Source of the DNA: an uncultured Planctomycetia bacterium
GTDB taxonomy: Bacteria; Omnitrophota; Gorgyraeia; Tantalellales; Tantalellaceae
Direction of reading: 5' to 3'
Length of the DNA: 64,000 nt
Assembly: GCA_964572255.1 (NCBI GenBank)
Contig: CAZNEE010000001.1
Span: 66,223-130,222 of the forward strand
Part shown: positions 10,391 through 56,058 of the stretch, piece after piece
Numbering within the stretch: the stretch's first letter is position 1
How the letters are laid out: every line of letters begins with the position of its first letter
Position numbers and translations under genes: made by a program
Notes under the pieces: generated by a model
The model's database searches: none
What the model was told of the DNA's origin: nothing
Seen by the model: the letters and a program-made list of their open reading frames with translations, nothing else

Positions 10391-12002
10391 TATTGTTATG
10401 AAACTGATATCCATCGTGGTTATCCTATCTCTCAGTGTGCCCGATTCGGCCATGGCACTGGCTCCCGCGAACAGATTTAATCCGATCGAGGATGCGGAAG
10501 AAAGGCAGGCCTGGGATGAAGAAACGGTCAGGAGCGTTAAAGCAGGCGAAGTGCTCGGTAAATCCTTCAGGAACAGGGTCGCTTTCCGTGATATGAGTAT
10601 TTTGATAGGGAAATACCTTCATTCGGGCATATCAAAATACACTCTCGTTCAGGAAATTAAAGAACATATAGACGCGGCAGAACTTGCTTTGAGCAAGACA
10701 CACCGGGATCCGCTCCTGGCGGGGTTTGAGATCGATGAATTGGAATATCGTGAAGATGAGAATGCATTTTATCTGCCTTTATACCGACAAGGAAAAAAAG
10801 CGTTTTATTACAAGTATTATACGGAAAAGGACGAAAAGAACCCACCCCACATCACGATCCCCCTTGGTAACGGAGAGTACGTTTATGTTGATGTGGTAAA
10901 GATCCTTCCGGATGAAGAAAATGAAGTATCGATAAACAATAAGGAAATGTCATCGGAGGAAGAGCAAAACATGTACATAGAATTAATGCTCAGGTTGAGG
11001 AAAGAATACCCCTGGCGTCAGTGCGCGGAACTTTCGAGCATACTGAAAGGCGAGCTTGAAAAAATGGGGGTAAAAGCCACAGTGTACACTACCCCAGTAT
11101 TTCTTGAACATTATAATATTGATCATGTCTGGGTTGTGACCGAGAAGGGATGGACACTGGATGCTTATCCGGAAGGTTCCAGGATGCCTAAGAAATTTGA
11201 TCATTTATGGAAAGAGACCAAAGGAGTTATAGCATTAGGCCCCGACTCCATCGGAAAATACCCGTATAATTCCGAAAGAGTTGAGATGGAGGTTGGTGAA
11301 GAGATAATAGGATATTTTTCAAAACGCGGATCCGAGTCTGAAGGGTTCGGTTCGATGGAAAAACTTGCCGCTGAGAGATCAATAGAACCCACTCCGGGAT
11401 CAGAGAAAAAACATGCTGTTCTTTTTAAAGATGCTGTTAAAATTAGCCAGGTAAGGGAAGAGGAGAAGATTTCATTTATCGCTCTTGGTACAAGCTGGAT
11501 CAAAGGCTATAAGAAGGGCATATTCCTTCAATATGATGCCTTGAATCCCCTGATCAAGTCTGTCAGAAAATTTTGTGAAGATAATGGCATACGTTTTGTA
11601 GAAGGGGACGATGAAACGATAGTAGGGGCCGTAAAAGATATTAAAGAAAAAGACCCCGGCGCCAGGGGCGTGGTATTGGCCGGCGAAGGTGTTGTCAATA
11701 TTCTTGAGGAATGTTTTGAAAATGCAGGCCTTGAGAACGATGACAGTGTTTTATTTGCCGGCGTTGACAATGGAAATCTCACCGTCGATAGTTATATAAG
11801 ATTTTTAGAGATGTTAACGATTGCGTTAAGATTATCAGCACGCGATTCTGTAAATGAAAATATCATAAAAGTTCTCCAAGTAAGATATCCGCAATTGGGA
11901 TTAGAGCTTGTGCATGGCAGACGCATTAAATTCATTCCCAAAGCCGAACCCCTGGACTATGAACTGTTCAAAGAGATCTGCGAAGTTCAAATCTGCGCTT
12001 AA
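10356..12002 (+). CDS. Hypothetical secreted protein (548 aa) with a putative transglutaminase-like cysteine-protease core (Cys in WRQCAEL, His-x-Trp in DHVWVV, Asp in GWTLDAY). The start at 10356 overlaps the stop of the upstream giant ORF by 35 nt; an alternative start is at 10398.
   Basis: ORF track. N-terminal signal-peptide-like KRKR...MKLISIVVILSLSVPDSAMA|LAP. A GAGGT Shine-Dalgarno-like sequence lies 13 nt before 10356. The core motif resembles G.C...H.W.E...GW..D of the Transglut_core family. Confidence 0.7.
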   Translation: MKLKRKRLDHCNIVMKLISIVVILSLSVPDSAMALAPANRFNPIEDAEERQAWDEETVRSVKAGEVLGKSFRNRVAFRDMSILIGKYLHSGISKYTLVQEIKEHIDAAELALSKTHRDPLLAGFEIDELEYREDENAFYLPLYRQGKKAFYYKYYTEKDEKNPPHITIPLGNGEYVYVDVVKILPDEENEVSINNKEMSSEEEQNMYIELMLRLRKEYPWRQCAELSSILKGELEKMGVKATVYTTPVFLEHYNIDHVWVVTEKGWTLDAYPEGSRMPKKFDHLWKETKGVIALGPDSIGKYPYNSERVEMEVGEEIIGYFSKRGSESEGFGSMEKLAAERSIEPTPGSEKKHAVLFKDAVKISQVREEEKISFIALGTSWIKGYKKGIFLQYDALNPLIKSVRKFCEDNGIRFVEGDDETIVGAVKDIKEKDPGARGVVLAGEGVVNILEECFENAGLENDDSVLFAGVDNGNLTVDSYIRFLEMLTIALRLSARDSVNENIIKVLQVRYPQLGLELVHGRRIKFIPKAEPLDYELFKEICEVQICA

Positions 12003-42200: not shown

Positions 42201-42617
42201 GATCTAAATAACATCAAGTTTATTGATAAACGCGGCCTTTCATATAAAGAATTAATATTGAAGATATCGTCAGAGGAAGGTATCACGCCTGACAATATAG
42301 GTATTAGAGCTTGTGAGGGAGAATTTGAAAAAGAAAGATCAGAATTCCGGTACGGAAAACTCCTGGAAGTCAAAGCAATAGACGCGGGCGGAGAGAAGGT
42401 ATATGTAGGTATTAATACATATCAAATACTGTTAAAGATACTGGTGAGCACGCAAAATACAGATGATATTTTCTATGACACAATTGATCTTCCGGGCGTT
42501 TCTTATGACGCTGGGAAGGGAATATTCACGTATTTACCGCGGTCTATTCCTATCGATTATCATAAAGAAATAAGGATCTACAGGAACGCGATGAGGATCA
42601 TAAATTCTGCCGCGTAA
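12219..42617 (+). CDS. Giant (10,132 aa) membrane-embedded modular protein. Order of parts: N-terminal TM anchor plus soluble region; four copies of a multi-TM domain (X0-X3); six HEAT/PBS-lyase-type repeat arrays, each closed by a conserved LEELEEAY...WKQDRMKKQ junction plus TM helix; a midasin-like cassette of six tandem AAA+ domains split by a membrane hairpin; an HETGH motif; a D/E/K-rich linker; a VWA/MIDAS domain; C-terminal TM helices and a tail.
   Basis: Single ORF in the track with no internal stops. Six Walker-A loops (GETGVGKTT, GPTGAAKTS, GESGVGKTS, GPTGSAKTS, GETGAGKTS, GLTGGGKSE), each followed by DGxL..A...G.W..LDE.NLA...(I/V)LER.NSLLDD and (I/V)HPNFR.FA.MNP...GR. A DESGSMG...VIVITDG MIDAS-type VWA signature. 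Dozens of D..VR..AA.ALG.IGD.RAVEPLI..L.D repeats. Confidence 0.85.
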   Translation: MFNINNNIITENNTRPLIMDWQSSRNKKWIRTIALIVIFCFTHQSIGWTENGTPVWTRSVNLPSNIAAKEEVFTSKGINGDKTIINIQDAHASLSAQESIVSVLDSLVSNYDLKLIAVEGSAGRIDTSLLRTFPDKEIRERSAYHLMKKGKMSAGEFFSITSDKEVALYGVEEKDLYRKNVDQFRGIYETNQVIQKDILNLISVLDVLKDNIYSQELKELENNSVLHEKGSITLKERWSFLGKLARRSGVSHKEKKNISKLVQCLELEEEIDFEKANSERSALIDILSKELSKEALEEFVLKSLSYKEGGITQGEYHLYLRNLMKEAGIPSVTYKDLNKFTDYIFLYESIDIISIFEEIKTFENEIKDKLFKNRDQRDLDAFSRYMETIRDLFEIRLVNSDFGYIVQNKDKFTASNLSEFIRNSSSKYGVRVKCDFDLARIFSGIPKALEFYRTVEERNSAILANTIKEMDEKGQSIAALITGGYHTRGLKELLKREETSYIVILPKFDDSEETKRPYIAILTNKKEPYQELLDSGRYYLATSAYCEGIIDLFKSSDSLEGDIREKYFELVDNYGEIFIHNVVMWVTGESDPDKAAGVFRRKFRSNPERIHKECADLIDSWSGSYKSFYDGCEDKELLISPEETKRFLEFLVEEKLGATRESKEEPVLLQGEEKDLQDESYVVRSVIERITSLGGDISDLDRACRILGVTPTPGIREEVLGQLGKMEGAEDAEVSPKEEISEPEEKTLIAEEAGTVEEDIRKTEPSKEKGYEEHAFTVRSAEKAIIVSILLSLLSFAGAVSLLIFNYTSLCYVVFCGLLSLAGVYFIFAAIRYFIIKEDVEERLTRRLVTLGLSEEEASKVVKHIAITHSSIDYYDHVGPQYGKLKEEQILPSKKIRDEFLPKDKEERNKYIAIFKEAALISFKNMHPDSVKNYNRVLLIKHESFSHIRGLLAITPISLHNAAIFGNALTFLSFIGIWIYLFVKDNISMPLAGGVIIAVLTLDIFTQLLIFIKTFIGLQSKFVEANTGLKVFSVSTILFLISFLVLISINPALFSWGVLLWAVITDLLLAGFLALYLTKSEEWHAVVIPVLTLLIGAGCIYHFKIKEAFLSTSELAAKAAFTREPDVKEETVFQILAHKDREEVIPEMVKNLNSNNRKLDNFSVQMLDVLKWEPESLREEVEYHVARRDEKRFQPLKDGMIGLLIDIVKREDADSGARLFSAMLLARECDKRVIEPVLDMWHKIGIISSSGLKEEYSLEADLKMLIENHGSIIYPHLKRFIVDEEWKKRDPEKSVIDSNWLRRQVIARVLAEINDPGTVDLLAIILEDNIDENRNIAVETLIRIGKPAISALKNILESSKFSKARESAAMILKTIGGEEAKAILLQARSDGSPRVRKAVADALNALGWAPGEEQEKIDHFIDNEYWDKIAEIGAPAIYLLERRLDSDDIQYRRRIIYALGNIKDPRAAEIILPLLYDDKSDIRISAADALGASGDKRAVEPLMELLGHSYSPVRGSAARALGKIRDIRAIKTLIKSLETEDKSDAKIEMISALKKFKDKSAKDILIKVLYDDEEGVKESAKKALRAILDMEGMLDELDQAYEGNDREKISTLEKLLTEVDKPALIQWKQDRMKKQAPTFKKYLTIGGIATLALAVLSVIFLVVRKLFKVKKVSGEKDDSTHAFTALSGFIGSGITALLSGGTFMGAVFAFGAGSMALNIIGSFAVIVGFYLGIAAMRYFFLGRATYTAMRDEKLPFKRSLTEPIARSDETQHKAFDHLKDKYKELIKKHEWHENHFIGMLGILLFPSITVSETAWTWDRRINIVRLKWVSIILSYISLAAIGIYAIPIADLVVLPGAAAVISAVLAVNLFMQLVIILKSYVEYGLFEPPVLVFPALAAASMLILNLVNPLFLFPATFWAIFTASIGATAFVSDSLRDRFTIAFAVLLFVLSFAVLPYKVWCAGKETDAVIKVGIEHFSRKKKLDPFAYQISANRKREEIIPKIVELLHNDKYSREFAVRMLEELKWEPQNIEEKVLYLATKERFDEIKLLGRPAIDIIVKGLTDKSSVSRKFSADILKKIEWEPKTQKEKLSYHIADKNWDVLAERGDIAIEQLRTCLEDEDREVRKGAAKVLDKLSWQAETQAEKITYSIAKEDQEMLIEIGAPAADDLIKMLKDKDPNARIFAIKVLEQIDDERVERLLTVRALEDEDENVSTAAGDTLKDMIDVAELLQRLDWAYEKDNRAKIKEIEDVLLRTDNKEALVKWKQDRMKKQALAFKKYLIVGGIATLALVVLSGLFLAVKKLFKVKRSGSTPKLPLIILFVLLSLFSARGIKAQEVPAPTPLPTPQEEIKTEKIPDVDALIEKLKDNDMDIRASAIKKLGEMKEVKAVDPLIEIVKKKCSRKIYIEKGLVESLTVEMPDGTKIICLPDDVACRVQAAKALGNICDKRAVDALIEALKDELSGEPRSSIITDLTLAEAHIGEALAKIGEPAIEPLKKALSEADHHTKRERIANILRKIESAKAAEALLESYKKEKEDPKWVYVNVYNGLIDIGRPAVEVLIKASKDEDIWIRRLALDVLGEIEIGTKEASEEAVDALINALKSGKNHSLDMGPAFINMSKKNTYVVDALIEALKDEDYSVRIDAASALSRICDQKAASPLLDAFLKEKDEIARQAIASALTEIKDPNAIEALKKALEDESSRVRAVAAWALERVDVMTPELKIIRYAKDLEDESVEVRVKAAKALSMMHGQKSKTALIKALCDEEEDVRKLAEKAAEMLETKLILEELEKAYDRDEDREKIIAIEKFIIKTNKPALNEWKRNRMKQRTSPFKKYLVWIGIGTLILVFLGGIAIAVKKVFKFKRSGKTPKLPLIILFVLLSVFSAKGVRAQEAPVPAPQEQEEVENEKEVDRLIKDLGDKDESIRNRAAKALGEIGGPKAIEALIKNMAVTHDLHGIKIVDPRACMDALVKIGEPAVKPLIKSLEDKDGTIRACAAAALDRLGVLTLEHKITKWSADLKDIDKKITVSEIREFDEIKDPDVRVDLLIAALIRGDGREQAEQSLKEINVMTPDILIKKLSHYLDSGNDIFRRGAAKELIKIEDPKVIDILVKMMGSKDEVVHDLAVEKLIEIEWQPKGPEEEVLYIDSLAEELKGYCTPEEQQLIFTALLKIGSKKAVKAIIEACGNEKQERSLYAIRVLVAIGPPAVDPLIEALESKSERIRKMAAKALEIIGDKRAAPGLIKMAKKAKDEEAYWESIDAIKALGGIGDASAVDFLTSVVENKKLGQIMRTEAAEALGKIGDPKAVDALLKAKNSKHYSLRIAAILALGEIGDPRPVEALIKEVGNTSMQNHSYEAIVALGNIGDPRAVEPLSKILDPEVYRSSYQKKAAFISLMQIGRPAAEILVPDWKKRYESFLYNLPREFKEELEMKRIKELALKFLTGSLKNEKTIMRKNAAEGLDDLEWKPATQEEKIIYCIAKEDWKALSETGEAAIPLLEEALRYEDPSISSSIAEILKKMEWKPEVQEEEIYYFIAKTDADALAKIGEPAVEALAELLESDYVSAQNFAKRLLKQFGTKVLLEQLEQAYAEGDREKINMLERRINLYDEEALIKWKRERLEKGAPPFWKYLAVAAGMFVFVLLGGMILAVGKVLKAKKAEKDNSTHAFRALSGFIAGGVTALLAGGVFRAAILTFGIGGLTFNIIGGLVLSIGIYSAIAAVRYFFLSKATYNAMRKEGLSFKDALIKPIAQSNSKTGALIVHKKAHDLLPDKYKKAIIMHESYKSHFIGMLAMPFSLIHDLLNQRVVSAITMINLYAMVIYEFIVWNTVSQLGLTIITAALAMNIGLQILVGIKMLIDRNKSGPDFVSLVWIAINCGFILLNCINPALLSPAVLLIFVMVAALSVTADIEKKADRIDAPVAFFIMMIGFFVVFLLGYGKLNMAFMDTPEMLDHAVHITDDQSSQNKNFYTVRRWVRKYWAAEILANRKEEEVVPELLKEMKGADQHARDIIFKVIKKIDWEPGTVEEKISYYTAKGDIEKLVSLREPAIGALLDILEDGTIENKAAAEEALGRIKVPKTVKVKAEKDEPTEKDPELAETTISGICPPAKSFSTLIQDLKSYKAGTRLDAAKALGDLGNRDAVPYLIEMLHWKIPYENDHLTPDWSPTKADVRKKALEVRSAVVEALGKLKDPRAVDHILSIATERSSSHGYILTETAVIALGKIGSPKAAKSIIETLADWSYKDISIEALVNIGKPAVPDLLEGIKTKGERSSYTRARDYSKNIRAFCAEALGRIQDERALKPLIKALRDGDRLVREHAAIGLGYLKDSKALQPLLNALKDKESDVRSAAAIALGRIEDERAFNALIKAYKTENKGYGEEESLVRAIGHFNNFLAINILASHAEEGTSDLNKFISERLVEIGEPAVKFLIRRINYDEARNILIKIGDPAIKPILEIFRNGDRQQRISAYTALKRMDNLPKGPFIEKLGHKDLLMREQSIEILTKLGWEPGTQEEKIYYYIANKDYDAVSKIGEPAVDVLIEALEYEDVGSRENAARILGELGSKRAVLPLANILEDKDLRNDVSAALRKIVKTSEALEELEEAYKVGDRERIDALEKILTEIDKPALVTWKQERMKKQVPAFKKYLTLGGISLLVLTLLGGVIAAIRKVSKVKKTKAEKDDSGHAFRALSGVAASGIALLFTGGAFVGVFYAWSAGGLVLNIAGGAALSFGIYLAVVSARYFFLGRATYIAMRDEKLSFKDALTIPIATANISRHRHKAYEGLSYKNKKLIDLHESYKSHFIGMLALMFSFIPGLVSSKAINRLTMISILSMTVYKLCVWNAASAFASGIITNLLVVHLAWQVLIFMRVIFEKFFGTSWGYLHEGSESFISLSMILVNGAFLYLGLLNPALLSPVVLFFALAVLMYANDDHQYRSSVIEFSFLPIVLFLVLGVSLFTKVKMASMDTVEVMKTAVQVKDVRNPRNMRYMMRRYWAAEVLANRKKEEVIPQLVSELNNENMDIREIAAEALYKLNWEPKNAEEEFLYHVAGRDIEKLSSLGKAATKPLLDILKEGNRDEKIAAAKAIGRIKDPETGPGLLDALKTASSKYYGDPKLEIVLIEAIGNIRFGKAVPLLLNELKEGNTAARKALVKIGEPAVEPLVKMLEHEKTVFKREKYEGILIEIGKPSAAVERLLEGGSFHNRESAAKILFKIGLYTKELRIKRCKADLKDENCSDIAKAKAEEALRKLGEVPEEGKTYKDIWDSEEARKEKIGKLIKDFESNDEKKQSAAVRELVRIGKPAVLDLIEALQENFAPVEQSAAKALAEIKDPRAIQPLFDKMENDDFDETRMVAAEALKQMGWEPKTDHEKAVYYIAIQAWDKLVEIGPAAVPKIIPRLKDDSPRVRINIINTLGRIKDPSVITRLIQSLRDEPINENVQWNKEHYAEVLGALKRALKAFGEEIVPHLKRELKEGNGKSKKWSIDILEDAGALSKTDLLEALKDEHYSVREFAVLALGRRNDPSVIDRLIEVFNAEKFEVKKFSKSGGFAVREAVVVALSDIGGEKAAGFLIKALKDKDWDVREKAATGLGKLEEKRAVRPLITALKDSNVDVRKQAAWALGQIGGKEAINALLGALEDDAKDVREAAKDALRKIVIAGEKLKELEEAYKKEDREKITEIEDILSIVNKDALEEWKQDRMKKEFPKFGKYLTVGGIIVFLFALISAFGIAVWKTIKKRKNLLLSILLAVTCAGAFYYLNEAFQFADEGGIFSLAGAPFFPVGGIITEGGIDPILAKEMTKFHKLMVKSAKKKIIGQDLRAPYEFTRRDRRRWANFINKYRSEMGITKAFIKGARYVYGDRMRTPDDEEKFIKIFKSLDLKAIADADPVDVDLEDLLKTGNIEYFTELIGSNPAALYSFCVRSDDDVVKEITDMISSEDIDAQKKGILSWAFLPDDVAEYLVAYGLHFDDHRLIEAAVRVAGRKKISNFNSQILKFSRNGDMELAASSLETLAETGDAEIASEVFKDLMTSGDQLFKIFKTRARVVALLGHDKDEYIEKFLRSLENSLGANFPQEARDVLVDAIVELGGRKIAENSLIAIQHAAAGSVRSDVNKVLLRLKQSQGMGKNDHLHFADQEVVELGKKLKGISRSISSGFRRALIENSARYQDFSENPEIFYRNGRSLQFIDTKLPINGRDEDKGFVPDESTTRIVPILRTVQDLEKIAQAAEMEDPLLLVGETGVGKTTLIRYLARLSNNNVRRFNLNGQTDKFEFIGGYKPEQYTLSRDQAYNVVEGLLKKETGHSKEEIVRAVRIISGQDKTCEQAKDILRQAFENKNSETISAIAEAVMNKSFEFKWHYGVLIEAMRRGHWLILDEINLAEPEIVERIRYLLDAHSHLKLSEYNNENWIDSRDYDEMVAKYIKKHERSGKDKETLTKEIVEDLTRQGIHRIHPNFRLFATMNPFGYEGRKELSAALMNKFNVKYIKQFEPDDIKGILKTKYNFSEDLLDKIISIHFGLTDVSGVGGMLGRNEGITYYYTIRHVFRLAERLKRDSENTGDTVIKDYLLQKEIIEIYGDGLRTEDDEKIFSSILYKVIPSSRFMKNDTSKKVTDNTEEGTVRIGDVVLPVNPDGGSLVPGEDSKLLLVKTTREWLEKIAKCILMDEKSLFIGPTGAAKTSMLRYIAHLTNNEFIRVNLDSYADTSDLIGKYIPKEDTKGELRWEDGVLIKAMEKGQWMLLDEFNLADPDILERINSLLDDDGALVVTEHNHERWVPHEKFDRLKAAGHDMSGLRRIHPNFRIFAAMNPERYAGRNRLSRAMMNKFNEKWISGYMSEDEIKHIAYFYATDGSIMEEEPLEGEIADQASAILSAVYLRVREMLEKNELGRGKISGINAEEYNFSLRDLKDWSKFVRKLHGEMGINRAIIEGALYVFRDRLEGIDDKGIFRDEILKRIIQIGNGHESVDIDRLDVLEEEGKSAEELITDVKVTDDDMNVLQRTEIAEIVDMFDNLCMNFPKYLHDDQGLNEIRRRLLTPGSEAAGIRGFALLPEDVAELLLDIVLDSVNPELLMAGCEVAGHLKIDSCNDKLLFLLKHDDFNVRAAAAFAIENVGLRFRDKDLGRPEKLEKKVLGKILLTEKEGGQSVGDYLGLKWIFRRLWIPCLGTMIPFLGLLFWMPLPYWQAAGGLLFSLSAVYIFSYIVLIKFAYPFIYGEQSEAIKKRYETLPLTLDDYYKLYEPGNRYKIKLPYHLKSKPVFGEDSKLRAYALPIFSMAGMVFAAFTGYGGYIGGFTTVSGMITLVIFEILMAVMGLFFSIGFFVLLTSWIATMGEVFSKPLMKRFLKGPEPEDDGFKITLPYSEGTIELFERYKQDQEAKRKALLSKGLAGEAKSPEDIIGVMKDEKIVIKDGKIIIDNIELDMKNSPEALVPDKEAAKLINTISAVRNMKKVAISLLLNEPALLVGESGVGKTSVVRYLASLVNWGFRRFNLNGQTEKTELIGGFRPDENGQFKWVDGILINAMREGSILVLDEINLAESQVLERINSLLDDDRHISIPEKDNMQWIDSRKYDLKVKEVTEKNKVTEEEAREILTEKKIFRIHPDFRLIATMNPVEYAGRNILSPALMNRFKVKWIDEMYSLERVAIFNNMFKNSAGGPLLDLNIVDRLDWLHTRIKDTAQARSIGEQEVDPYYYSIRDFIKLGFRIKEAIGKKERDEDRKLNREERTDIAIRESVLVYVDRIRDAEERNRLISVVEDFLGGFDTSGIEAAGISDTPDKVRIGDIVLDKNDGRGPYVPGKKSVLFDTPTTNRYLAKLAEMVHLNETPLMVGPTGSAKTSIVRYLSYLTKNNFVRVNLDAQTDTSEIIGSYIPVEDREGEFEWRDGLLVTALRKGYWVLLDELNLADPEILERINSLIDDEGCLIITEHEGEKIMSAKEYDRKVAEYVRGRKIVSDPRSEEELTLEAKEHLEKEKIYRVHPNFRLFTAMNPARYSGRNRLSLAMRNKLSEIWISGEMDEHEYKRIISGYLTDNPSKRKMVISMTEIHLGMLEVVNMLDEGTIDKYQFSMRDIKAWANYVNMYGPKIGWDEAFAKGAVYIYYDRLTKAEHRKEFMSFFSELLKEASYSKAYKHAVNFTARSISTKDKEKVTTRNNGFIDVLETTLEVNRSPISKELVPKEDVAKLIHTDSAMKDLEKVAQAAYLNEPSLLIGETGAGKTSLVRYLAHLTNNAFQRFNISGQTEKRDFIGGYHPDEDGKFVWKDGILIEAIKKGEWLVVDEINLAPSQVIERMNSLLDDDGFIVVTEHKGEKYIRQSEYDKKVDEYAYIIMQKEKCSMEEAVRKAKEELTKELVFPIHPNFRFFATMNPSEYAGRQVFSKALINRFRVKWIDIPDKEDVREILKEKYKGKLPQKIINKAIEVHYEMIEGSSGIDEDKVHYTIRHLIRWMERLVLGLEKEWDTDVNRLAFTEGAAIYGDGLPIEEDQEDSLSNEYGGIDNIQLLYNMLEEALEARFGKPQGEENIEITEDEDLVSFGEVSLPENKEERKFYVSGPELKNTGSMKRFLKRIARSVLAVENILLLGLTGGGKSELVRHLSDLTNNNFIAMDLDGQTDVSQLIGQYVPLEGEDRFQWVQGSLLEAMEHGAWILIDELNLAEPEIIERLNSLLDDDASLTVNEHKGEKWIPAKLYDELEANGHDMTYLKKIHENFKLFCAMNPAHYAGRTKMSKAMLNKFYQLWIPQEGTFEEEAEITVHYLDAEASFSDVSEEKLRMEGVIEKNTELAEAARYVNSSSLYLGMNGFGALAYIFDQIKSWRKKRKDDQNKKLELKSLNPQYLLEKSGEEEDEDMGWLKKIRMKRGDKKVNKILKNVSFMKEFYSGEFNTDIRPGAGWAIDLSTTPPTLIYPKKDLEERSADYICGVTMHETGHRDISFLVEKFFKKESTRFLLNAVEDPRVNNWGMVKVPGTKRYFKTMYDEDSPASGRISMADFSKVLPHIQFGLGIIHHWYSGKEHPYIKNPRVLEALQETRPAVTEAYSLLPGTIRVKRYDKERIVVDSSTGRKRFIPLPPVGHTVSVGKTDVQSVERVDEDTIIVTTRKESREISVPEEGGWETLLNNIKPSNDEKKAIAVKSAKIIEEKVLPAYEKLVQESIDQMKKQMSGQGSGQSGQEQDQPGQGGVEAQAEEEVEKQSKEFADDLEGKLPRGEEEKKEEMKKKREERWKKPQDEGKSKAGDKDEEKGEGGGGDEKTEEDKEGGDEKGEGAGEKDEEKDQKGVSSGGEDSAEDKNEVSSESSERSSGGEDKSRSDSAEEKRQKREPSEDGTKKESAADAEGEKQETAQEEDRSKGKPSPVDFGRRLTMKDRLKLDIKLREKIKVEHKDKYDKYYSQAIRLIERLFGTLDNELVKDKKPRYKGWFEAGKLRRMNKAMTMKKTGDMRIWERRSNPTKRSFKFSIVLDESGSMGMGHSESETSQDALKALVLFMEVLSRLDIDFSVIGFSDAPSVHKSLQESFKYKNKDELINEIIEYMGRGLGTYDAAAVNLAVNQLEQESSDSKVIIVITDGYGNGPVEVEKMIREARKKGIEVIGVGVGNGMQYVKSVYHPNATVRTMEELPGVIAKLLIDIIVYRKYTPIDHEEKNQPINAIKLSIASLVNIFAGIGSMFLTDLAPGSVLPWMLGIFSGACIASALIYLVTTMFIEMVFQIGRETAFRSEERKIARTVTYPDGTKRIETEPEFDKLPWIIRKFIIMHEKVHVAGFGEFMAYAFPWIGLFVKTSGKNKKSMIGGDPEIAIGIHKNVSDEVFTEIINILDEKVNIIVTESEEEFAEAIEDANFTGIFIDESITLDSIMTEKVRKDIYSIKLMKTYKGILKVNEISPETRDKIAETIKKIIPEIDKVDIDSVLGTAREIMAKDADLYKNIMSLQGLVAKRKNEIASVYNNMKMDEAVNYGGNLVVATTERIAEFDPFAFDNMQKTEGRSIVNYFIYGDNIKDIDEAKKFARASGYKGDLNNIKFIDKRGLSYKELILKISSEEGITPDNIGIRACEGEFEKERSEFRYGKLLEVKAIDAGGEKVYVGINTYQILLKILVSTQNTDDIFYDTIDLPGVSYDAGKGIFTYLPRSIPIDYHKEIRIYRNAMRIINSAA
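14520..15540 (+). other. Multi-TM domain X0, the first of four paralogous membrane domains (HAF...RYF...).
   Basis: Runs of hydrophobic helices beginning HAFTVRSAEKAIIVSILLSLLSFAGAV. Confidence 0.45.
17098..17190 (+). repeat. Intragenic nucleotide repeat: the WKQDRMKKQ-junction/TM segment, about 88% identical at nucleotide level to 19011-19103. Related copies lie near 20676, 23058, 26103 and 29291.
   Basis: Aligned by eye: tggaaacaggaccgcatgaaaaaacaggcgc...ggcggtatagctacgct versus tggaagcaggaccgcatgaaaaaacaggcgc...ggcggtatagctacgct. Confidence 0.7.
17240..18110 (+). other. Multi-TM domain X1 (KDDSTHAFTALSGF...HEWHENHFIGML...).
   Basis: Paralogous to 23200-24060 and 26250-27120. The nucleotide 17-mer cattttataggcatgct is shared by all three copies. 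Confidence 0.5.
19160..19240 (+). repeat. Intragenic nucleotide repeat encoding an internal signal-peptide-like segment (KLPLIILFVLLSLFSARGIKAQEVP), highly similar to 20822-20905 (KLPLIILFVLLSVFSAKGVRAQEAP).
   Basis: aaacttccgcttatcattttatttgtactgctttc...gcccaggaag versus aaactgccgcttatcattttattcgtattgctttc...gcccaggaag. Confidence 0.7.
23200..24060 (+). other. Multi-TM domain X2 (KDNSTHAFRALSGF...HESYKSHFIGML...).
   Basis: A 26-nt stretch (23565-23590) is identical to 26607-26632. Confidence 0.5.
26250..27120 (+). other. Multi-TM domain X3 (KDDSGHAFRALSGV...HESYKSHFIGML...).
   Basis: Paralogous to X1 and X2, with the same flanking junction before it and the same MASMDT...ANRKKEEVIP entry into the HEAT array after it. 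Confidence 0.5.
30850..31990 (+). other. AAA+ domain 1 of the midasin/MoxR-like (AAA_5-type) cassette.
   Basis: P-loop GETGVGKTT at 30918-30944; GVLIEAMRRGHWLILDEINLAEPEIVERIRYLLD; IHPNFRLFATMNPFGYEGRKELSAALMNKF. Confidence 0.65.
32150..33060 (+). other. AAA+ domain 2.
   Basis: P-loop GPTGAAKTS at 32214-32240; GVLIKAMEKGQWMLLDEFNLADPDILERINSLLDDDG; IHPNFRIFAAMNPERYAGRNRLSRAMMNKF. Confidence 0.65.
34520..35470 (+). other. AAA+ domain 3.
   Basis: P-loop GESGVGKTS at 34584-34610; GILINAMREGSILVLDEINLAESQVLERINSLLDDD; IHPDFRLIATMNPVEYAGRNILSPALMNRF. Confidence 0.65.
35620..36540 (+). other. AAA+ domain 4.
   Basis: P-loop GPTGSAKTS at 35679-35705; GLLVTALRKGYWVLLDELNLADPEILERINSLIDDEG; VHPNFRLFTAMNPARYSGRNRLSLAMRNKL. 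Confidence 0.65.
36760..37640 (+). other. AAA+ domain 5.
   Basis: P-loop GETGAGKTS at 36816-36842; GILIEAIKKGEWLVVDEINLAPSQVIERMNSLLDDDG; IHPNFRFFATMNPSEYAGRQVFSKALINRF. Confidence 0.65.
37870..38420 (+). other. AAA+ domain 6.
   Basis: P-loop GLTGGGKSE at 37926-37952; GSLLEAMEHGAWILIDELNLAEPEIIERLNSLLDDD; IHENFKLFCAMNPAHYAGRTKMSKAMLNKF. Confidence 0.6.
39660..40240 (+). other. D/E/K/G-rich low-complexity acidic linker between the AAA cassette and the VWA domain. It is analogous in position to the D/E-rich region of eukaryotic midasin.
   Basis: QGSGQSGQEQDQPGQGG...EEKKEEMKKKREERWKK...GDKDEEKGEGGGGDEKTEEDKEGGDEKGEG...SSERSSGGEDKSRSD read from the translation. Confidence 0.7.
40527..41050 (+). 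other. von Willebrand factor A (MIDAS) domain.
   Basis: FKFSIVLDESGSMG (DxSxS at 40548-40562)...DFSVIGFSD...KVIIVITDGYGNG...IEVIGVGVGNG. Confidence 0.65.
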
Positions 42618-43308
42618 TTACTTGCCTTTGCGTCAGTGTCGGAATCCCCGTTGATTTAATGTAGCTGATGTGTTTTTTGAATTCGTCTATATGCGTGAAG
42701 AAGCGGTAGGGAGCGTCCCTGTGAGCGCTTTTTGTGTTCTTGTCCGAGACAAGATGAAAAACTTCAATAAGCCACAGGTCTTTTTTACTTACTATTTCGA
42801 TGAGTTTCTCATATTCAGCCATAGGGATATCGGTCGTTATGCAGGTGCCCGTTATCGAATACGGGTCTTTCACGGGGAGTTCATTAAAAGCGAAACTTTC
42901 CGTCGATATTCTTGATGAGGTGTAATATTCAGACGCAAGGGTACGCAGAGATGAAGTCTGGTTATTCTTTATAAAAGGAAACACGAAGGATTCTATGCGG
43001 CCTCCGAACTTCTCTTTCAGGATATCTTTTGACCTCTTCATTTCGCTTTTTACCGCTTTCTCGCCTTCGGAGTTAAATACATCCAGCATGTTGCGGTGTG
43101 TTAAGCTATGAGCGGCTATCTCATGGCCGTTATTTACGAGATATTTTACGTCTTCTTCGCTTATTACATCTCTGTTCTCAAGTGTCTTACCTATATAGGA
43201 GGAGGGAATGGCAAAAGTGGCGGGGATACCATTTTCTGTCAGAAGTTCAGCACAGTGCTTAAAAGTGTCCTTATACCCGTCATCAAAAGCTATGGTTATG
43301 ATTCCCAT
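42598..43308 (-). CDS. Polysaccharide deacetylase (NodB homology domain / CE4 family), 236 aa. Its 3' end overlaps the stop of the giant ORF by 20 nt (convergent).
   Basis: ITIAFDDGYKD (TFDDG-type motif 1) and NGHEIAAHSLTH (HxxxH motif 2). An AAGGGGA Shine-Dalgarno-like sequence precedes the ATG on the minus strand. Confidence 0.85.
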   Translation of the reverse strand: MGIITIAFDDGYKDTFKHCAELLTENGIPATFAIPSSYIGKTLENRDVISEEDVKYLVNNGHEIAAHSLTHRNMLDVFNSEGEKAVKSEMKRSKDILKEKFGGRIESFVFPFIKNNQTSSLRTLASEYYTSSRISTESFAFNELPVKDPYSITGTCITTDIPMAEYEKLIEIVSKKDLWLIEVFHLVSDKNTKSAHRDAPYRFFTHIDEFKKHISYIKSTGIPTLTQRQVITRQNL

Positions 43309-43367
43309 AAATTCCCCTTGTAGCTATTTCCTTTTTTTAGTATATTAGCTTATACAATTGTAACTTG

Positions 43368-43520
43368 CAACAGTTTTAGAGTATTCTTACCGGGGGAGTC
43401 CAATTTACTCCAGCGGTAAATTGGACTCCAAAAAAGTTGTTCTAATCCGTGCACTTCGTGCTTGGATACCAAGCTAGAACAACTTTTTGAGGTCCCGTAC
43501 AGAATACTCTAAAACTGTTG
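43368..43520. repeat. Nested inverted-repeat (cloverleaf-like) element filling the divergent intergenic region. An outer 23-bp stem (43368-43390 / 43497-43520, one bulge) encloses two perfect 14-bp hairpins: 43395-43408/43416-43429, and 43431-43444/43475-43488 with an internal cttgg-ata-ccaag mini-hairpin.
   Basis: The reverse complement of cagttttagagtattct (43371-43387) equals agaatactctaaaactg (43501-43517). The pairs ggagtccaatttac/gtaaattggactcc and aaaaagttgttcta/tagaacaacttttt were verified by hand. Confidence 0.6.
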
Positions 43521-43548
43521 AAAAATAATAATAATTTCGGAAAAACAC

Positions 43549-45282
43549 ATGGATAACAAAGAAATCGCCGACATATTTTCAAAAATAGCGGATATCCTGG
43601 AGATAAAGGATGAAAACGTCTTCAAGGTCCGCGCATACCGCACCGCCGCGCTTAATATCACCGGCCTTTCGCGCCAGCTCAAAGATCTCTACAAAGAGGA
43701 CCCCGAGTCCATCGGGAATATTCCCGGTATAGGTAAAGATCTTAAAGAAAAGATCATCGAGATGCTTGAAACAGGCAAGCTTAAGCAATTCGATAAGCTT
43801 ATGAAAGAATTCTCGCCGGGGTTTTTAGATCTGCTTAATCTGGAGGGGTTGGGGCCTAAAAAACTGAAGAAACTCAGAGATGAGCTGAAGATAAAAGATG
43901 TCGACGATCTGGTAAAAGCCTGCGAAAAGGGAAAACTGGAAAAGATGGAAGGCATGGGCGCGAAAACCCAGGAGAAACTGCTCGGCGCGATAAAGCATTT
44001 CAAGAAACGCGCGGGAAGGATGCTGCTTCCTGAAGCCGATGAATATGCGGACCAGATCATAGAGTATCTGAGTAAGTCTAAAAATTTCAAAAGATTGGAA
44101 AAAGCCGGCTCCTTGCGTAGAGGCAAAGAAACCGTGGGCGACCTGGATATACTTTCCGTTGCGAAAGACGCAGATAAAGCGATGGAGCACTTCACTTCTT
44201 TTCCGAGAACAGAGAACATTATCGCTAAGGGCAAAACAAAATCGAGTATAGCGATAAAGAACGGTCCTCAGGTAGACTTGCGCGTTATAGATGAATCATG
44301 TTTCGGCGCGGCTTTTATGTATTTTACCGGATCAAAACAGCATAACGTAAAACTCAGGACGATCGCTAAAAGCAGCGGCTATAAGGTGAGTGAGTACGGC
44401 ATTTTTTCGGTCAGCAGGTCGGGAAAAGAAAAGTTCATAGCCGGCAAGACCGAGAAAGACGTTTACGCTAAACTCGGCATGGAATGGGTGCCCCCGGAAC
44501 TCAGGGAAGACCAGGGAGAGATAGAAGCGGCTTTAAAGAAAAAACTTCCCAAAAACCTTATCGAGGAAAAAGACATAAAAGGGGATCTGCATATTCACAC
44601 GACCGAGAGTGACGGACGAGCTACCATAGAAGAGATCGCCAAGGCAGCTAAGAAAAAAGGGTATGAGTATATAGGAATAACGGAACACTCTAAACTTGTG
44701 CGTGTCGCGCACGGGCTTGATGAGAAGAGAATGATGAGGCATATCGAGCGGATACGCAAGGCCGATAAAAAGATAAAAGGCTTGAAAATATTGGCCGGCA
44801 TAGAGGTAGATGTCCTGACGGACGGAAAACTTGACCTAAAAGATTCGGTATTAAAAGAACTTGATATAGTAATAGCCGCCATACATTCAAAATTCTCGCT
44901 GGATAAGGAAAAACAGACAGAACGTCTGCTCAAGGCTATCGATAATAAATACGTCAATGCCGTTGCGCATCCTTCAGGAAGGCTTATTACAACGAGAAGC
45001 CCGCTTCAATTGGACTTTCCCCGTATTTTTAAAGCCGCGCGGGACGCTAAGGTATATCTTGAGGTCAATACTCACGGTGAAAGGATAGATCTTAATGATG
45101 TCAATTGCAGGGCCGCAAAAGATATCGGCGCTAAAATTATCATTAACAGCGACGCGCATGATACTGAGCAGCTTGATAAGCTTATCTACGGCATTATCAC
45201 TGCAAGAAGAGGATGGATAGAGAAAAAAGATGTTATAAACACATTGCCGCTCGATAAACTTATGAAGGCGCTGAAAAGGTAA
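43549..45282 (+). CDS. polX: DNA polymerase X family protein with C-terminal PHP (polymerase/histidinol phosphatase) domain, 577 aa.
   Basis: N-terminal ...KVRAYRTAALNI..., palm motif GSLRRGKETVGDLDIL, PHP motif GDLHIHTTESDG, and later HP...NTHGE. Confidence 0.9.
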   Translation: MDNKEIADIFSKIADILEIKDENVFKVRAYRTAALNITGLSRQLKDLYKEDPESIGNIPGIGKDLKEKIIEMLETGKLKQFDKLMKEFSPGFLDLLNLEGLGPKKLKKLRDELKIKDVDDLVKACEKGKLEKMEGMGAKTQEKLLGAIKHFKKRAGRMLLPEADEYADQIIEYLSKSKNFKRLEKAGSLRRGKETVGDLDILSVAKDADKAMEHFTSFPRTENIIAKGKTKSSIAIKNGPQVDLRVIDESCFGAAFMYFTGSKQHNVKLRTIAKSSGYKVSEYGIFSVSRSGKEKFIAGKTEKDVYAKLGMEWVPPELREDQGEIEAALKKKLPKNLIEEKDIKGDLHIHTTESDGRATIEEIAKAAKKKGYEYIGITEHSKLVRVAHGLDEKRMMRHIERIRKADKKIKGLKILAGIEVDVLTDGKLDLKDSVLKELDIVIAAIHSKFSLDKEKQTERLLKAIDNKYVNAVAHPSGRLITTRSPLQLDFPRIFKAARDAKVYLEVNTHGERIDLNDVNCRAAKDIGAKIIINSDAHDTEQLDKLIYGIITARRGWIEKKDVINTLPLDKLMKALKR

Positions 45283-45289
45283 GCGTAGA

Positions 45290-47275
45290 ATGTCGAAAGA
45301 TATCAAAAAAAGAATAGAAGAGCTCAGAAAAGAGATAATAAAACATAATAAGCTTTATTATGAAAAGGGCGCGCCTGTAATTTCAGATTCCGGGTATGAT
45401 AAACTCATGAAGGAACTGAAAGAGCTTGAAAACAGACATCCGGAATATATTACATCAGATTCCCCGACTTTGACGGTAGGCGCTCCGCCCGCGGAGAAAT
45501 TAAAAAAAGTCAAGCATACCTCACCCATGCTCAGCCTTGAAAGCGTGAACGAGGAGAGTGAAGCGGAACATTTTGACGAAACCTGCAGGAAAGATCTCGG
45601 CAAGAAGGATGTCGATTACATGTGCGAGCCAAAACTTGACGGGCTCAGCATAGAGCTGTTTTATGAGAACGGCGTTTTTACAAGGGGGTCAACGCGCGGT
45701 GACGGCATGGTGGGCGAGGAAGTCACGAATAATTTAAGGACCATCTCAAGCGTTCCGCGCAAACTTCAAGGGAAAGATCTTCCTAAACGCTTCGCCGTGC
45801 GCGGCGAGGTCATGATGCATATAAAGGATTTCCAGGCGCTTAATAAAGAACAGACAGAACAGGGAAAAGATACATTTGCGAATCCGCGCAATGCCGCAGC
45901 CGGCTCCATGAGACAACTCGATCCTTCCATAACCGCGCAGAGAACATTAAACGTTTATTGCTACAGGATACTCGATACATCAGATAAATTGCCGGACACT
46001 CAAGAGAAGTGTCTGGATCTGATCAAAAGTCTTGGATTTAAAATATCTCCTGGCGCGAAACATTGCAAAACCATGGATGATGTGATCAAGTATCATCACG
46101 ATCTTGAGAAGAAAAGGGATGAATTAAATTACGAAATAGACGGCGTGGTCGTAAAGGTCAACCGCCTGGATCATCAGGAAAAATTGGGCAGAAGAACAAC
46201 AAACCCTAAGTGGGCGGTTGCATACAAGTTTGAACCCCGCAAGGAGGTCACGAAAATAGAGGATATAGCCGTTCAGGTGGGGAGAACGGGACTCATAACT
46301 CCGGTCGCTCTTATGCATCCGGTTGAGGTCGGAGGCGTTACGGTATCAAGAGCGACTCTCCACAACATGGATGAAATTGAAAGGCTCGGCGTAAAGATAG
46401 GAGATTATGTTAAAGTGCAAAGAGCGGGGGATGTCATCCCAAAAGTTACGGAAGTCATAAAAGAGAAAAGGACAGGCAGGGAAAAAGCCTTTCACATGCC
46501 GGTTAAATGTCCGAGCTGCGGAACGAAACTGGAGAAAGAGGATGTTTTTTACCGCTGTCCGGCGGGTTTGGCTTGTCCTGCACAATTAAAAGAAGCTATA
46601 ACACATTATGCCAGTAAAGGCGCGGTGGATATAGAAGGTTTTTCGGATAAAACGGTGGAGCTATTTCATGATAAAGGTCTTATTAACAGTATTTCCGATA
46701 TATATACTTTGAAAAGAGAAGATATCCTGGGGCTTGAAGGATGGAAAGAGAGAAAGATAAATAATCTTTTGAGGGCCATAGAGAACGCGAAAGATGTTTC
46801 CCTGGACAGGTTTATCTTCGGCCTGGGGATAAAAAATGTAGGGAAACATATAGCGACGCTTTTAGCCGAAAAATACGGTTCACTGGAGAAGCTGGAGAAG
46901 ACAAAAGAAGAAGAATTGCTCCGGATAAATGAGATCGGCCCTGAGATAGCCGTAAGTATAACAGCTTTCTTCAGCGAAAAGAAGAATGTTGGAGAAATAG
47001 AGAAGCTTAAGAAATGCGGCGTAAAGATCCGTGAAAAAAAGATTAAAGGGAAGCTTGCCGGCAAGAAAATAGTCTTTACGGGGTCGCTCCAGACCATGTC
47101 GCGTTCAGAAGCTAAAAAACAGGTGGAAGCCGAAGGCGGGGAAGCATTATCAAGCGTTTCGGATAACGTGGATTTCGTTGTTGTAGGCGACAAACCAGGT
47201 TCAAAGCTCGATCAAGCCAAGAAAAAAGGCATAACTATTATTTCAGAAAAAGAATTTAAAAAAATCCTGGGATAA
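45290..47275 (+). CDS. ligA: NAD+-dependent DNA ligase, 661 aa.
   Basis: Adenylation motif CEPKLDGLSIEL (KxDG), Zn-finger CPSCGTKL...RCP..ACPAQ, HhH region, and C-terminal BRCT (KIVFTGSL...VVVGDKPGSKLDQAKKKGI). Confidence 0.95.
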   Translation: MSKDIKKRIEELRKEIIKHNKLYYEKGAPVISDSGYDKLMKELKELENRHPEYITSDSPTLTVGAPPAEKLKKVKHTSPMLSLESVNEESEAEHFDETCRKDLGKKDVDYMCEPKLDGLSIELFYENGVFTRGSTRGDGMVGEEVTNNLRTISSVPRKLQGKDLPKRFAVRGEVMMHIKDFQALNKEQTEQGKDTFANPRNAAAGSMRQLDPSITAQRTLNVYCYRILDTSDKLPDTQEKCLDLIKSLGFKISPGAKHCKTMDDVIKYHHDLEKKRDELNYEIDGVVVKVNRLDHQEKLGRRTTNPKWAVAYKFEPRKEVTKIEDIAVQVGRTGLITPVALMHPVEVGGVTVSRATLHNMDEIERLGVKIGDYVKVQRAGDVIPKVTEVIKEKRTGREKAFHMPVKCPSCGTKLEKEDVFYRCPAGLACPAQLKEAITHYASKGAVDIEGFSDKTVELFHDKGLINSISDIYTLKREDILGLEGWKERKINNLLRAIENAKDVSLDRFIFGLGIKNVGKHIATLLAEKYGSLEKLEKTKEEELLRINEIGPEIAVSITAFFSEKKNVGEIEKLKKCGVKIREKKIKGKLAGKKIVFTGSLQTMSRSEAKKQVEAEGGEALSSVSDNVDFVVVGDKPGSKLDQAKKKGITIISEKEFKKILG

Positions 47276-52926: not shown

Positions 52927-52947
52927 ATGAGAGGAATGCCATTCCAT

Positions 52948-52985
52948 AAGGGGGCAGATAATATTATCTGCCCCCTTATTATACC
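52948..52985 (+). terminator. Rho-independent terminator candidate downstream of the 1,832-aa gene.
   Basis: Perfect hairpin aagggggcagataat / attatctgccccctt (52948-52978) followed by an A/T-rich tail (attatacctt). Confidence 0.55.
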
Positions 52986-55346: not shown

Positions 55347-55422
55347 GCCCGCATAGCTCAGCTGGCAGAGCAACTGACTCTTAATCAGTGGGTCCAAGGT
55401 TCGAATCCTTGTGCGGGTACCA
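55347..55422 (+). tRNA. tRNA-Lys (anticodon CTT), with encoded CCA.
   Basis: Cloverleaf folded by hand: acceptor gcccgca/tgcgggt (G1-U72 wobble), D-stem gctc/gagc, anticodon stem actga/tcagt with loop ctCTTaa, T-stem caagg/ccttg with loop ttcgaat, discriminator A. Confidence 0.85.
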
Positions 55423-55458
55423 AAGTTAGCCTAAAACACAGTTTATTAATGATTGCGA

Positions 55459-55534
55459 GCGGGTGTAGCTCAGTTGGTAGAGCATCACGTTGCCAACGTG
55501 ATTGTCGTCGGTTCGAGCCCGATCACCCGCTCCA
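55459..55534 (+). tRNA. tRNA-Gly (anticodon GCC), with encoded CCA.
   Basis: Acceptor gcgggtg/cacccgc, D-stem gctc/gagc, anticodon stem tcacg/cgtga with loop ttGCCaa, T-loop ttcgagc, discriminator U. Confidence 0.85.
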
Positions 55535-55584
55535 TTTTCATCTATCCCTGGAATTTTGATCAAACGATACAAGGAGCGAGAGGC

Positions 55585-56058
55585 ATGAAAATCAGTGAGA
55601 TGTTAAGCGGCAATGCTATTAACGTTGATTTAAAAGCTACCGATAAAGAAGGTATTATCGAAGAACTTGTCGATCTTTTGGTGTCTTCCGGCAGCATAAA
55701 AAAAGCTCAGAAAGAAGAAATATTATCCAAGCTCAAAGAAAGAGAAGTACTTGGGTCCACCGGTATCGGTAAAGGAGTGGGGATTCCTCACGCAAAGAGT
55801 AAAAGCGTCAAAAAAATGATCGCGGCTTTCGGCGTATCTAAAAAAGGCGTTGATTTTAAATCGCTGGACGGCTCTCCGGCAAATATATTTTTCCTTTTGA
55901 TCGCCCCCGGAGAGACTCCCGGACCTCATCTTAAGGCATTGGCGAAGATATCGCGTTTACTTGATGATAAATTTATCCGTGAAAGGTTGCGTTCAGCTGC
56001 TTCAACTAAAGAGGCCATTAAGATCATGATAGATGAAGAGCAAAAAGCCGCCCAATAA
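55585..56058 (+). CDS. ptsN: PTS EIIA (fructose/nitrogen-type, PtsN-like) regulatory protein, 158 aa. The track ORF 55453-56058 starts inside tRNA-Gly; the real start is the ATG at 55585, preceded by AAGGAG.
   Basis: NAINVDLKATDKEGIIEELV...GIGKGVGIPHAKS (phosphorylatable His loop)...IFFLLIAP. Confidence 0.75.
   Translation: MKISEMLSGNAINVDLKATDKEGIIEELVDLLVSSGSIKKAQKEEILSKLKEREVLGSTGIGKGVGIPHAKSKSVKKMIAAFGVSKKGVDFKSLDGSPANIFFLLIAPGETPGPHLKALAKISRLLDDKFIRERLRSAASTKEAIKIMIDEEQKAAQ

Follow-up and report, generated by a model that had tools for sequence, protein, structure and literature searches.

A palindromic element in front of polX

The window analyzed here is a 64-kb stretch of DNA from an uncultured bacterium, and the question it raises concerns the short region from which a polysaccharide deacetylase gene and a polX gene are divergently transcribed. 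A preliminary description, made from the letters alone, had placed 240 nt between the two gene starts (43308 on the minus strand and 43549 on the plus strand), a distance that we confirmed. It had also reported a set of nested inverted repeats in this gap, for which it considered a MITE-like or repeat element, a structured or cis-regulatory RNA, and a binding platform for a regulator shared by the two genes. What is this element, and how did it come to lie between these genes? The features of the locus are as follows.

42598..43308, minus strand: polysaccharide deacetylase gene (Pfam); its start is 57 nt from the left end of the element
43318..43346, plus strand: promoter-like block, −35-like TTGTAG (43318–43323), 17-nt spacer, −10-like TATATT (43341–43346); common to the related contigs L033 and L036
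43365..43523, no strand assigned: whole palindromic element, 159 bp, non-coding, outer stem and two hairpins
43365..43394, no strand assigned: left terminal inverted repeat, perfect core 43368–43387, CAACAGTTTTAGAGTATTCT
43395..43429, no strand assigned: inner palindrome 1, GGAGTCCAATTTAC-tccagcg-GTAAATTGGACTCC, 14 bp, perfect
43431..43488, no strand assigned: inner palindrome 2, AAAAAGTTGTTCTA-30 nt-TAGAACAACTTTTT, 14 bp, perfect
43494..43523, no strand assigned: right terminal inverted repeat, perfect core 43501–43520
43549..45282, plus strand: polX, family X DNA polymerase with a PHP domain (Pfam and PolX-named homologues from Candidatus Omnitrophota); first gene 3′ of the element
45290..47275, plus strand: ligA, NAD-dependent DNA ligase (Pfam), 7 nt after polX and presumably co-transcribed with it

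The PolX homologues place the organism in Candidatus Omnitrophota, the nearest PolX outside its own population being 73% identical. Four contigs from NCBI, JGI, Logan, and ENA, up to 526,890 bp long, carry an identical PolX (P0121; window 43549–45279), so that far longer sequence of this genome is publicly available. The window otherwise consists of housekeeping genes and two giant ORFs on the plus strand, both upstream of the deacetylase gene (128–10390, 3,420 aa, and 12219–42617, 10,132 aa), the second of which overlaps the 3′ end of the deacetylase gene by 20 nt. Omnitrophota have been reported to carry giant genes (bioRxiv 10.1101/2023.11.21.568195; PMC10066038).

Anatomy and folding of the element

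A repeat finder recovered the anatomy given in the preliminary description (nested stems, two 14-bp hairpins, and a mini-hairpin) almost to the base. The outer inverted repeat (43368–43387 with 43501–43520) is 20 bp long and perfect, both on reading the sequence and in the output of the repeat finder. It extends to 23 bp if C43500 is bulged, with TAC at 43388–43390 pairing with GTA at 43497–43499, and to 30 nt at 87% (43365–43394 with 43494–43523) if one mismatch and a second bulged C are admitted. The segment between the perfect 20-bp repeats (43388–43500) measures 113 bp and is itself nearly symmetric. According to the repeat finder, hairpin 1 has arms at 43395–43408 and 43416–43429 around a 7-nt loop, and hairpin 2 has arms at 43431–43444 and 43475–43488 around a 30-nt loop, with A6 and T5 tracts at the base of this second palindrome. 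The larger loop holds the mini-hairpin CTTGG-ATA-CCAAG (43461–43473), which has 6 bp when written as GCTTGG/CCAAGC at 43460–43474, and a competing small hairpin, GCAC-TTC-GTGC, at 43451–43461. The longest open frame in the 159 bp comprises 52 codons and has no homologue.

When folded as a single strand, positions 43365–43523 form a three-way junction composed of the outer stem and the two hairpins. The minimum free energy of the plus-strand RNA is −81.9 kcal/mol (z = −12.7), that of the minus-strand RNA is −80.0 kcal/mol (z = −11.3), and the DNA fold has a value of −53 (z = −14.1). Not one of 200 shuffles folded as well as the element. The 64-kb window has seven inverted repeats that measure 14 nt or more (within 300 nt), and three of them belong to the element. 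The earlier view that the stems are unlikely to be coincidental is thus upheld by z-scores between −11 and −14. None of the 48 base pairs in the three main stems is a G–U pair. Because G–U pairs are lacking, both strands are equally stable, and perfect palindromes are arranged in a hierarchy, the symmetry of the element points to an origin at the DNA level rather than to an RNA shaped by selection.

Occurrence in other assemblies and strain variation

Five other public assemblies share the 240-nt gap with the window (six in total), without a single base difference and in one orientation; the six derive from several samples. One of these, the Logan contig L039, is 100% identical to the window. 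Two others, L029 from JGI and L040 from ENA, are approximately 99.87% identical to it over 6.9 kb, whereas L045 (ENA) and L046 (JGI) are approximately 98.6% identical over 1.36 kb. Since the element occurs in six assemblies, it is no assembly artefact and has become fixed in the population sampled. A chance palindrome or an artefact of assembly, for which the single copy is the sole point in favor, retains practically no probability: the z-scores of −11 to −14, the absence of any equally stable sequence among 200 shuffles, and the identical sequence in six assemblies from JGI, ENA, and Logan refute both.

The most divergent strain has no differences from the window in the 240-nt gap and 19 in 1,119 flanking coding bases, which gives a nominal P of about 0.02. 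Thirteen of the 19 differences between the window and L045/L046 cluster within 130 nt in the 3′ half of the deacetylase gene (42826–42954), and because of this clustering the strain differences are unusable as a test of constraint; the test was dropped, as no significance is left once the 13 differences are set aside. Of the clustered differences, 11 are at third codon positions, and the cluster may stem from recombination or represent an allele that diverges locally. L045 and L046, both short, end in a 42-nt fold-back copy of polX sequence that yields an apparently truncated PolX of 198 aa; these ends look like an assembler artefact.

The promoter-like block and the polX locus of relatives

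The polX locus was compared in five relatives whose PolX is 70 to 73% identical to that of the window. The upstream neighbor of polX and the length of the gap are given here for each.

L033: deacetylase, 50 nt
L030: deacetylase, 95 nt
L038: deacetylase, 106 nt
P0004 contig: deacetylase, 135 nt
L036: sigma-factor gene, 106 nt
This window: deacetylase, 240 nt

The arrangement of the deacetylase gene with polX–ligA is thus kept in most relatives (L030, L033, L038, and the P0004 contig), and polX–ligA synteny holds in every relative fetched that has sequence beyond polX. When the window was aligned with L033 and L036, a block, CCTTGTAG-N8-TTTTTTAGTATATTA-CTTA, proved invariant in the three sequences. 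Conservation ends at about 43353, just before the element. The promoter-like block scores 8/12 against the sigma-70 consensus in a looser hexamer scan; at the threshold of the tool, the sigma-70 scan reported no site, the block included. L036 retains the block beside a different upstream neighbor, which indicates that it belongs to polX, and the block at 43318–43346 is likely to be the promoter of polX–ligA.

A covariance model of the element found no counterpart in the polX upstream gaps of the relatives, and these gaps fold at −8 to −20 kcal/mol, against −88 kcal/mol for the gap of the window. Because the gaps of the relatives are shorter and lack the element, and because similarity ends before it, the element is, judging from these alignments, a lineage-specific insertion of about 160 bp located 3′ of the promoter-like block and not an ancestral part of a divergent promoter; at 70 to 73% PolX identity, the relatives are too distant to define the exact empty site. 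The 240-nt "promoter region" of the window would then be composed of an ancestral region of about 50 to 135 nt and an insertion of about 160 bp. The preliminary description had the element filling the divergent promoter region. The size of the gap stands, but as phrased this does not hold: the promoter-like block lies to the left of the element, which is situated 3′ of the block, in the presumed 5′ leader of polX. When the putative leader (43350–43580) was folded, the element adopted the same structure independently of its surroundings, and the A-rich region around the AUG stayed unpaired. The shared regulator proposed for the two divergent genes is weakened as a candidate, since most relatives keep the gene pair and the promoter-like block without the element.

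Some further observations concern the leaders and spacers of this locus. In the window, polX has no clear Shine–Dalgarno sequence (43520–43548: AAAAATAATAATAATTTCGGAAAAACAC-ATG), unlike L030, which has a strong GGGAGGTG upstream of polX. In L033, a −10-like hexamer (9990–10000) ends 13 nt before the ATG, which implies a nearly leaderless polX mRNA. The operon of these relatives holds perfect hairpins, each specific to its lineage. In the 98-nt polX–ligA spacer of L033, which is 7 nt long in the window, a perfect 17-bp stem precedes a T-rich run (11746–11800); the polX leader of L036 contains a stem of 8 bp, TTAGATCG...CGATCTAA (9937–9968). Small palindromic insertions appear to come and go around the polX–ligA genes.

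Copy number and mobility

The preliminary description had named multiple copies in the genome as the sign of a mobile or repeat element. Searches for such copies were negative wherever they were run, that is, in 72.2 kb of the same genome and, by exact 18-mer, in collections that do not hold this locus. No second copy of the element occurs in the 72.2 kb (the window plus its extension, contig L042). Within the 64-kb window, neither the 18-mer core of the outer repeat nor either inner arm recurs outside the element, even with two to three mismatches allowed. In a scan of 268 kb of sequence with a covariance model of the element, only self matches were obtained.

No two-armed match to the exact 18-nt repeat core was found in 185,579 species genomes, the JGI metagenome collection, and IMG/VR. 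These collections did not return the locus itself, from which it follows that the source genome is absent from them, and they are silent on the copy number in this genome. Single-arm 18-mer matches numbered eight in the genome contigs, 18 in the metagenome contigs, and two in the viral contigs, which by our estimate is about the level expected by chance. Follow-up by blastn showed that similarity at these matches does not extend beyond 18 to 26 nt; the longest, of 26 nt (L001), comes from Dysgonomonas sequence that is unrelated and lacks a partner arm. Judged by these large scans, a widespread family with this exact repeat core is excluded. Several other searches were negative as well: blastn of the element against plasmids and phages gave no match, viral contigs contained neither the hairpin-1 and hairpin-2 patterns nor the two-arm gapped pattern, and the 52-aa open frame of the element retrieved no candidate mis-called copy from a database of 5.8 billion proteins. 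No locus with two copies of the 18-mer, as might mark a parent IS, was seen in the genome, metagenome, and viral scans (exact 18-mers only), and no transposase, integrase, or invertase was identified among the window ORFs scanned with Pfam, a set from which the giant ORFs of 3,420 and 10,132 aa were left out.

Assembly behavior bears on the same point. A Logan contig passes through the element without a break, yet contigs from the same run end in a genuinely repeated 30-nt unit and, nearby, in a perfect palindrome of 34 nt. As assemblies of this kind break at repeated k-mers, the continuity of the contig would argue against near-identical copies of the element in that Logan sample.

MITEs are described as short (<500 bp), non-coding, and bounded by terminal inverted repeats of approximately 4 to 30 bp, with flanking direct repeats that are present at least in young copies and fade with time (PMC10969869). 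Several dispersed copies, or another sign of mobility such as an empty site in a close relative, and an autonomous IS with matching ends also belong to this description. At 159 bp and without coding capacity, the element falls within the first two limits, and its terminal repeats (20 bp perfect, 30 nt at 87%) fall within the third. Flanking direct repeats are not part of it: no convincing target-site duplication was found, only matches of 2 to 4 nt at asymmetric boundaries with A/T-rich flanks. A duplication that has faded is a less apt explanation here, because the perfect stems argue that the copy is young. Of the three candidates in the preliminary description, the MITE-like element fits best, being lineage-specific, DNA-symmetric, and non-coding; what speaks against it is that there is neither a second copy in the 72.2 kb nor a target-site duplication.

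Tests for known RNAs and DNA sites

Rfam 15 at gathering thresholds gave no match at the element, and only two tRNAs in the window passed. Under permissive settings, the element matched miRNA-hairpin models only, with 13 to 19 bits against thresholds of 58 to 195 and E > 1. ARAGORN reported neither a tRNA nor a tmRNA at the element. Homologues of the element for a covariation test were not found, the orthologous polX leaders being devoid of it. The structured or cis-regulatory RNA of the preliminary description finds no support, given the lack of an Rfam match, of homologues for covariation, and of the element in relatives.

Four more specific identities were considered and rejected. For an intrinsic terminator or attenuator, the scan flagged nothing within 43365–43523; such a site would combine a G+C-rich, short-looped hairpin with a U-run, whereas hairpin 2 ends in a U5 tail but has an A/U-rich stem and a loop of 30 nt. 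A three-way-junction ribozyme of the hammerhead type would have core motifs, of which there are none, and there is no Rfam hit. No box matching a LexA-type operator is present. The attC sites of integrons have the consensus RYYYAAC / GTTRRRY, which the ends of the element (TTGCAAC / GTTGAAA) fit poorly, and the element has no unpaired central spacer or L-box bulge and no cassette context.

The two tRNAs, supported by both Rfam and ARAGORN, are tRNA-Lys(CTT) at 55347–55422 and tRNA-Gly(GCC) at 55459–55534. An ORF at 55453–56058 overlaps the tRNA-Gly at its 5′ end, and its TTG start is doubtful because of this overlap; in a Logan record, the gene annotated here starts at about 55585 and encodes a 157-aa PTS EIIA. 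The Logan contig L041 begins at window position 55509, inside the tRNA-Gly.

Other palindromes of the genome

In the same genome, approximately 5 to 7 kb beyond the 3′ end of the window (L042), a REP-like interspersed unit of about 30 nt, GGGGACGCCCCATTTGGGGACACCCC(A/T)ACA, includes two mini-palindromes of the form GGGG-ACN-CCCC. One copy is a singlet flanked by convergent genes (L042 6166–6197), and two more make up an inverted doublet (6962–6990 and 7042–7070) with 29-nt arms that are 97% complementary and separated by a 51-nt spacer. The RNA fold of the doublet has a free energy of −69 kcal/mol (z = −7.2), and the doublet lies just upstream of a promoter-like site, TTGACC-17-TAAAAT, of a ferredoxin gene. 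L041 ends within the left arm of the doublet. The unit was found neither in the window nor in viral contigs.

At 52946–52979, 20 nt past the stop codon of a 1,832-aa peptidase-C39 protein, the window contains a perfect loopless 34-nt palindrome, ATAAGGGGGCAGATAAT/ATTATCTGCCCCCTTAT, followed by TTATTATA. It looks like an ordinary intrinsic terminator. The Logan contig L039 ends inside it, at window position 52975. We found no paper in the literature on repeat elements in Omnitrophota.

Interpretation of the element

We favor the reading that the element is an orphan, MITE-like palindromic insertion carried passively in the 5′ UTR of polX–ligA, and give it about an even chance of being right; membership in a MITE family is unproven. 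The insertion would have occurred in this Omnitrophota lineage only, about 20 bp 3′ of the −10 hexamer of the likely polX–ligA promoter, and would have arrived by transposition or a related DNA-level event. The element would now be a solitary copy and is probably immobile. Passive transcription would place it at about nucleotides +13 to +170 of the polX–ligA leader, where the RNA is predicted to form, by itself, a highly stable three-way junction and to leave the A-rich sequence around the start codon unpaired. The outer duplex of at least 20 perfect base pairs would be a natural substrate for RNase III, and any effect on expression may come about through processing or stability of the leader, as in Correia elements, rather than through sensing of a ligand or a protein. 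At the left end, the palindromic TTGCAA (43365–43370) is 17 nt from TAATAT on the minus strand; speculatively, it may supply a −35-like hexamer to the deacetylase gene, and the resulting TTGCAA/TAATAT pair would be a hybrid and weak promoter-like arrangement facing that gene.

Perfect stems without decay imply that the element either was inserted recently or is maintained by selection, and the latter would favor a functional reading. One such reading is a young, species-specific, cis-acting leader RNA in which the three-way junction is selected, for instance as a site of RNase III processing or a determinant of mRNA stability, with the level of the repair operon set in this way. The position between the conserved promoter-like block and the start codon speaks for it, as do the extreme stability, the accessible AUG region in the folded leader, the perfect stems, and a 240-nt gap that is unchanged in a strain with 1.4% divergence in its flanks. 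This last point carries little, however, since the lack of differences in the gap is not significant when those in the flanks cluster in the deacetylase gene. No covariation is demonstrable, as the relatives lack the element; Rfam has no match; and the absence of G–U pairs (0 of 48), together with the equal folding of both strands, is a signature of DNA palindromes. We regard such an RNA as unlikely. Inversion of the 113-bp segment by a recombinase encoded elsewhere, with altered expression after initiation, would account for perfect 20-bp repeats placed around this segment between promoter and start codon, a layout like that of the flagellar switch of C. difficile (PMC5386303). All six assemblies show one orientation, although assemblies report the majority form only, and no recombinase gene was found among the ORFs of the 64-kb window that were scanned with Pfam. 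A flip would also change little: the interior is nearly symmetric, either orientation presents hairpin 2 followed by five to six U residues, and neither strand scores as a terminator. A housekeeping repair operon would moreover be an unusual target of phase variation, and an invertible segment is, in our judgment, very unlikely.

The symmetry could also serve at the level of DNA, as an operator or architectural site, as a hairpin for an HUH endonuclease or a primosome protein, or as the relic of a hairpin-ended or single-stranded replicon. Perfect DNA-level palindromes, a very stable single-strand DNA fold, and a T-shaped topology like that of parvovirus terminal repeats fit this idea, to which we nevertheless assign a very low probability: relatives have the same genes and promoter-like block without the element, arms of 14 bp spaced 7 and 30 nt apart do not resemble ordinary operators, the neighborhood has no HUH, Rep, integrase, or phage-like gene, and the viral, phage, and plasmid collections gave no match. 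A bolder functional proposal, which we consider similarly improbable, would see in the T-shaped nested palindrome an invertible or hairpin-recognized switch in the PolX–LigA leader of an ultra-small uncultured omnitrophotal bacterium, with DNA structure, through cruciform extrusion or the action of a recombinase or HUH enzyme, coupled to the expression of gap-filling repair enzymes, and would take the perfect stems of the single copy as the mark of selection.

If the element is a passively carried MITE-like insertion, the polX–ligA mRNA should carry a long double-stranded leader, and the finding would amount to one more small palindromic insertion in a bacterial 5′ UTR, mainly of value for annotation. 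Should the element be multi-copy, it would represent the first described MITE family in Omnitrophota, and should it be invertible, it would matter more.

Comparison with known systems

The terminal repeats of parvoviruses (the AAV ITR) consist of a long outer palindrome around two short internal palindromes and measure approximately 145 to 160 nt in total. The likeness to the present element is one of shape only, as the element is chromosomal, lies between conserved genes, and has neither a Rep or viral gene nor a match in the viral databases. Integron attC sites resemble it in being imperfect long palindromes with bulged bases and in having AAC...GTT near the ends; unlike them, the element has a perfect 20-bp stem and is flanked by syntenic core genes. 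REP and REPIN sequences are likewise short extragenic palindromes, and their doublets form long hairpins. The element shares no sequence with the REP-like 30-nt unit of the same genome, is not repeated, and has no RAYT-type transposase that we could see.

The flgB flagellar switch of C. difficile (Cdi4) is a 5′-UTR segment of 154 bp with 21-bp repeats on either side, and the recombinase of an inverton may be encoded elsewhere, as is RecV in C. difficile (PMC5386303). In both Cdi4 and the present element, inverted repeats of about 20 bp flank approximately 110 to 150 bp between a promoter and the first gene. The element differs in its single orientation in six assemblies, the lack of a recombinase nearby, its near-symmetric interior, and its location in a housekeeping repair operon.

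The closest counterparts are found among MITEs. The Correia and QMITE2 families have tens to hundreds of copies, usually with flanking direct repeats (TA for Correia), whereas the element was seen once in all searchable sequence and is accompanied by neither a target-site duplication nor a related IS. Its interior consists of two further perfect palindromes, in contrast to the simple core of those MITEs. In other respects, the Correia repeat-enclosed elements of Neisseria and QMITE2 of Coxiella are much like it, being non-coding and approximately 100 to 160 bp long with terminal repeats of 20 to 30 bp (PMC10969869; PMC2649163). The ends of MITEs can create promoter hexamers, and Correia elements that are co-transcribed are cleaved by RNase III at their repeats (PMC10969869; PMC2649163). 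Like the element in front of polX, these MITEs are intergenic and lie next to promoters; their transcripts fold into very stable hairpins (PMC10969869; PMC2649163), as is predicted for a transcript of the element.
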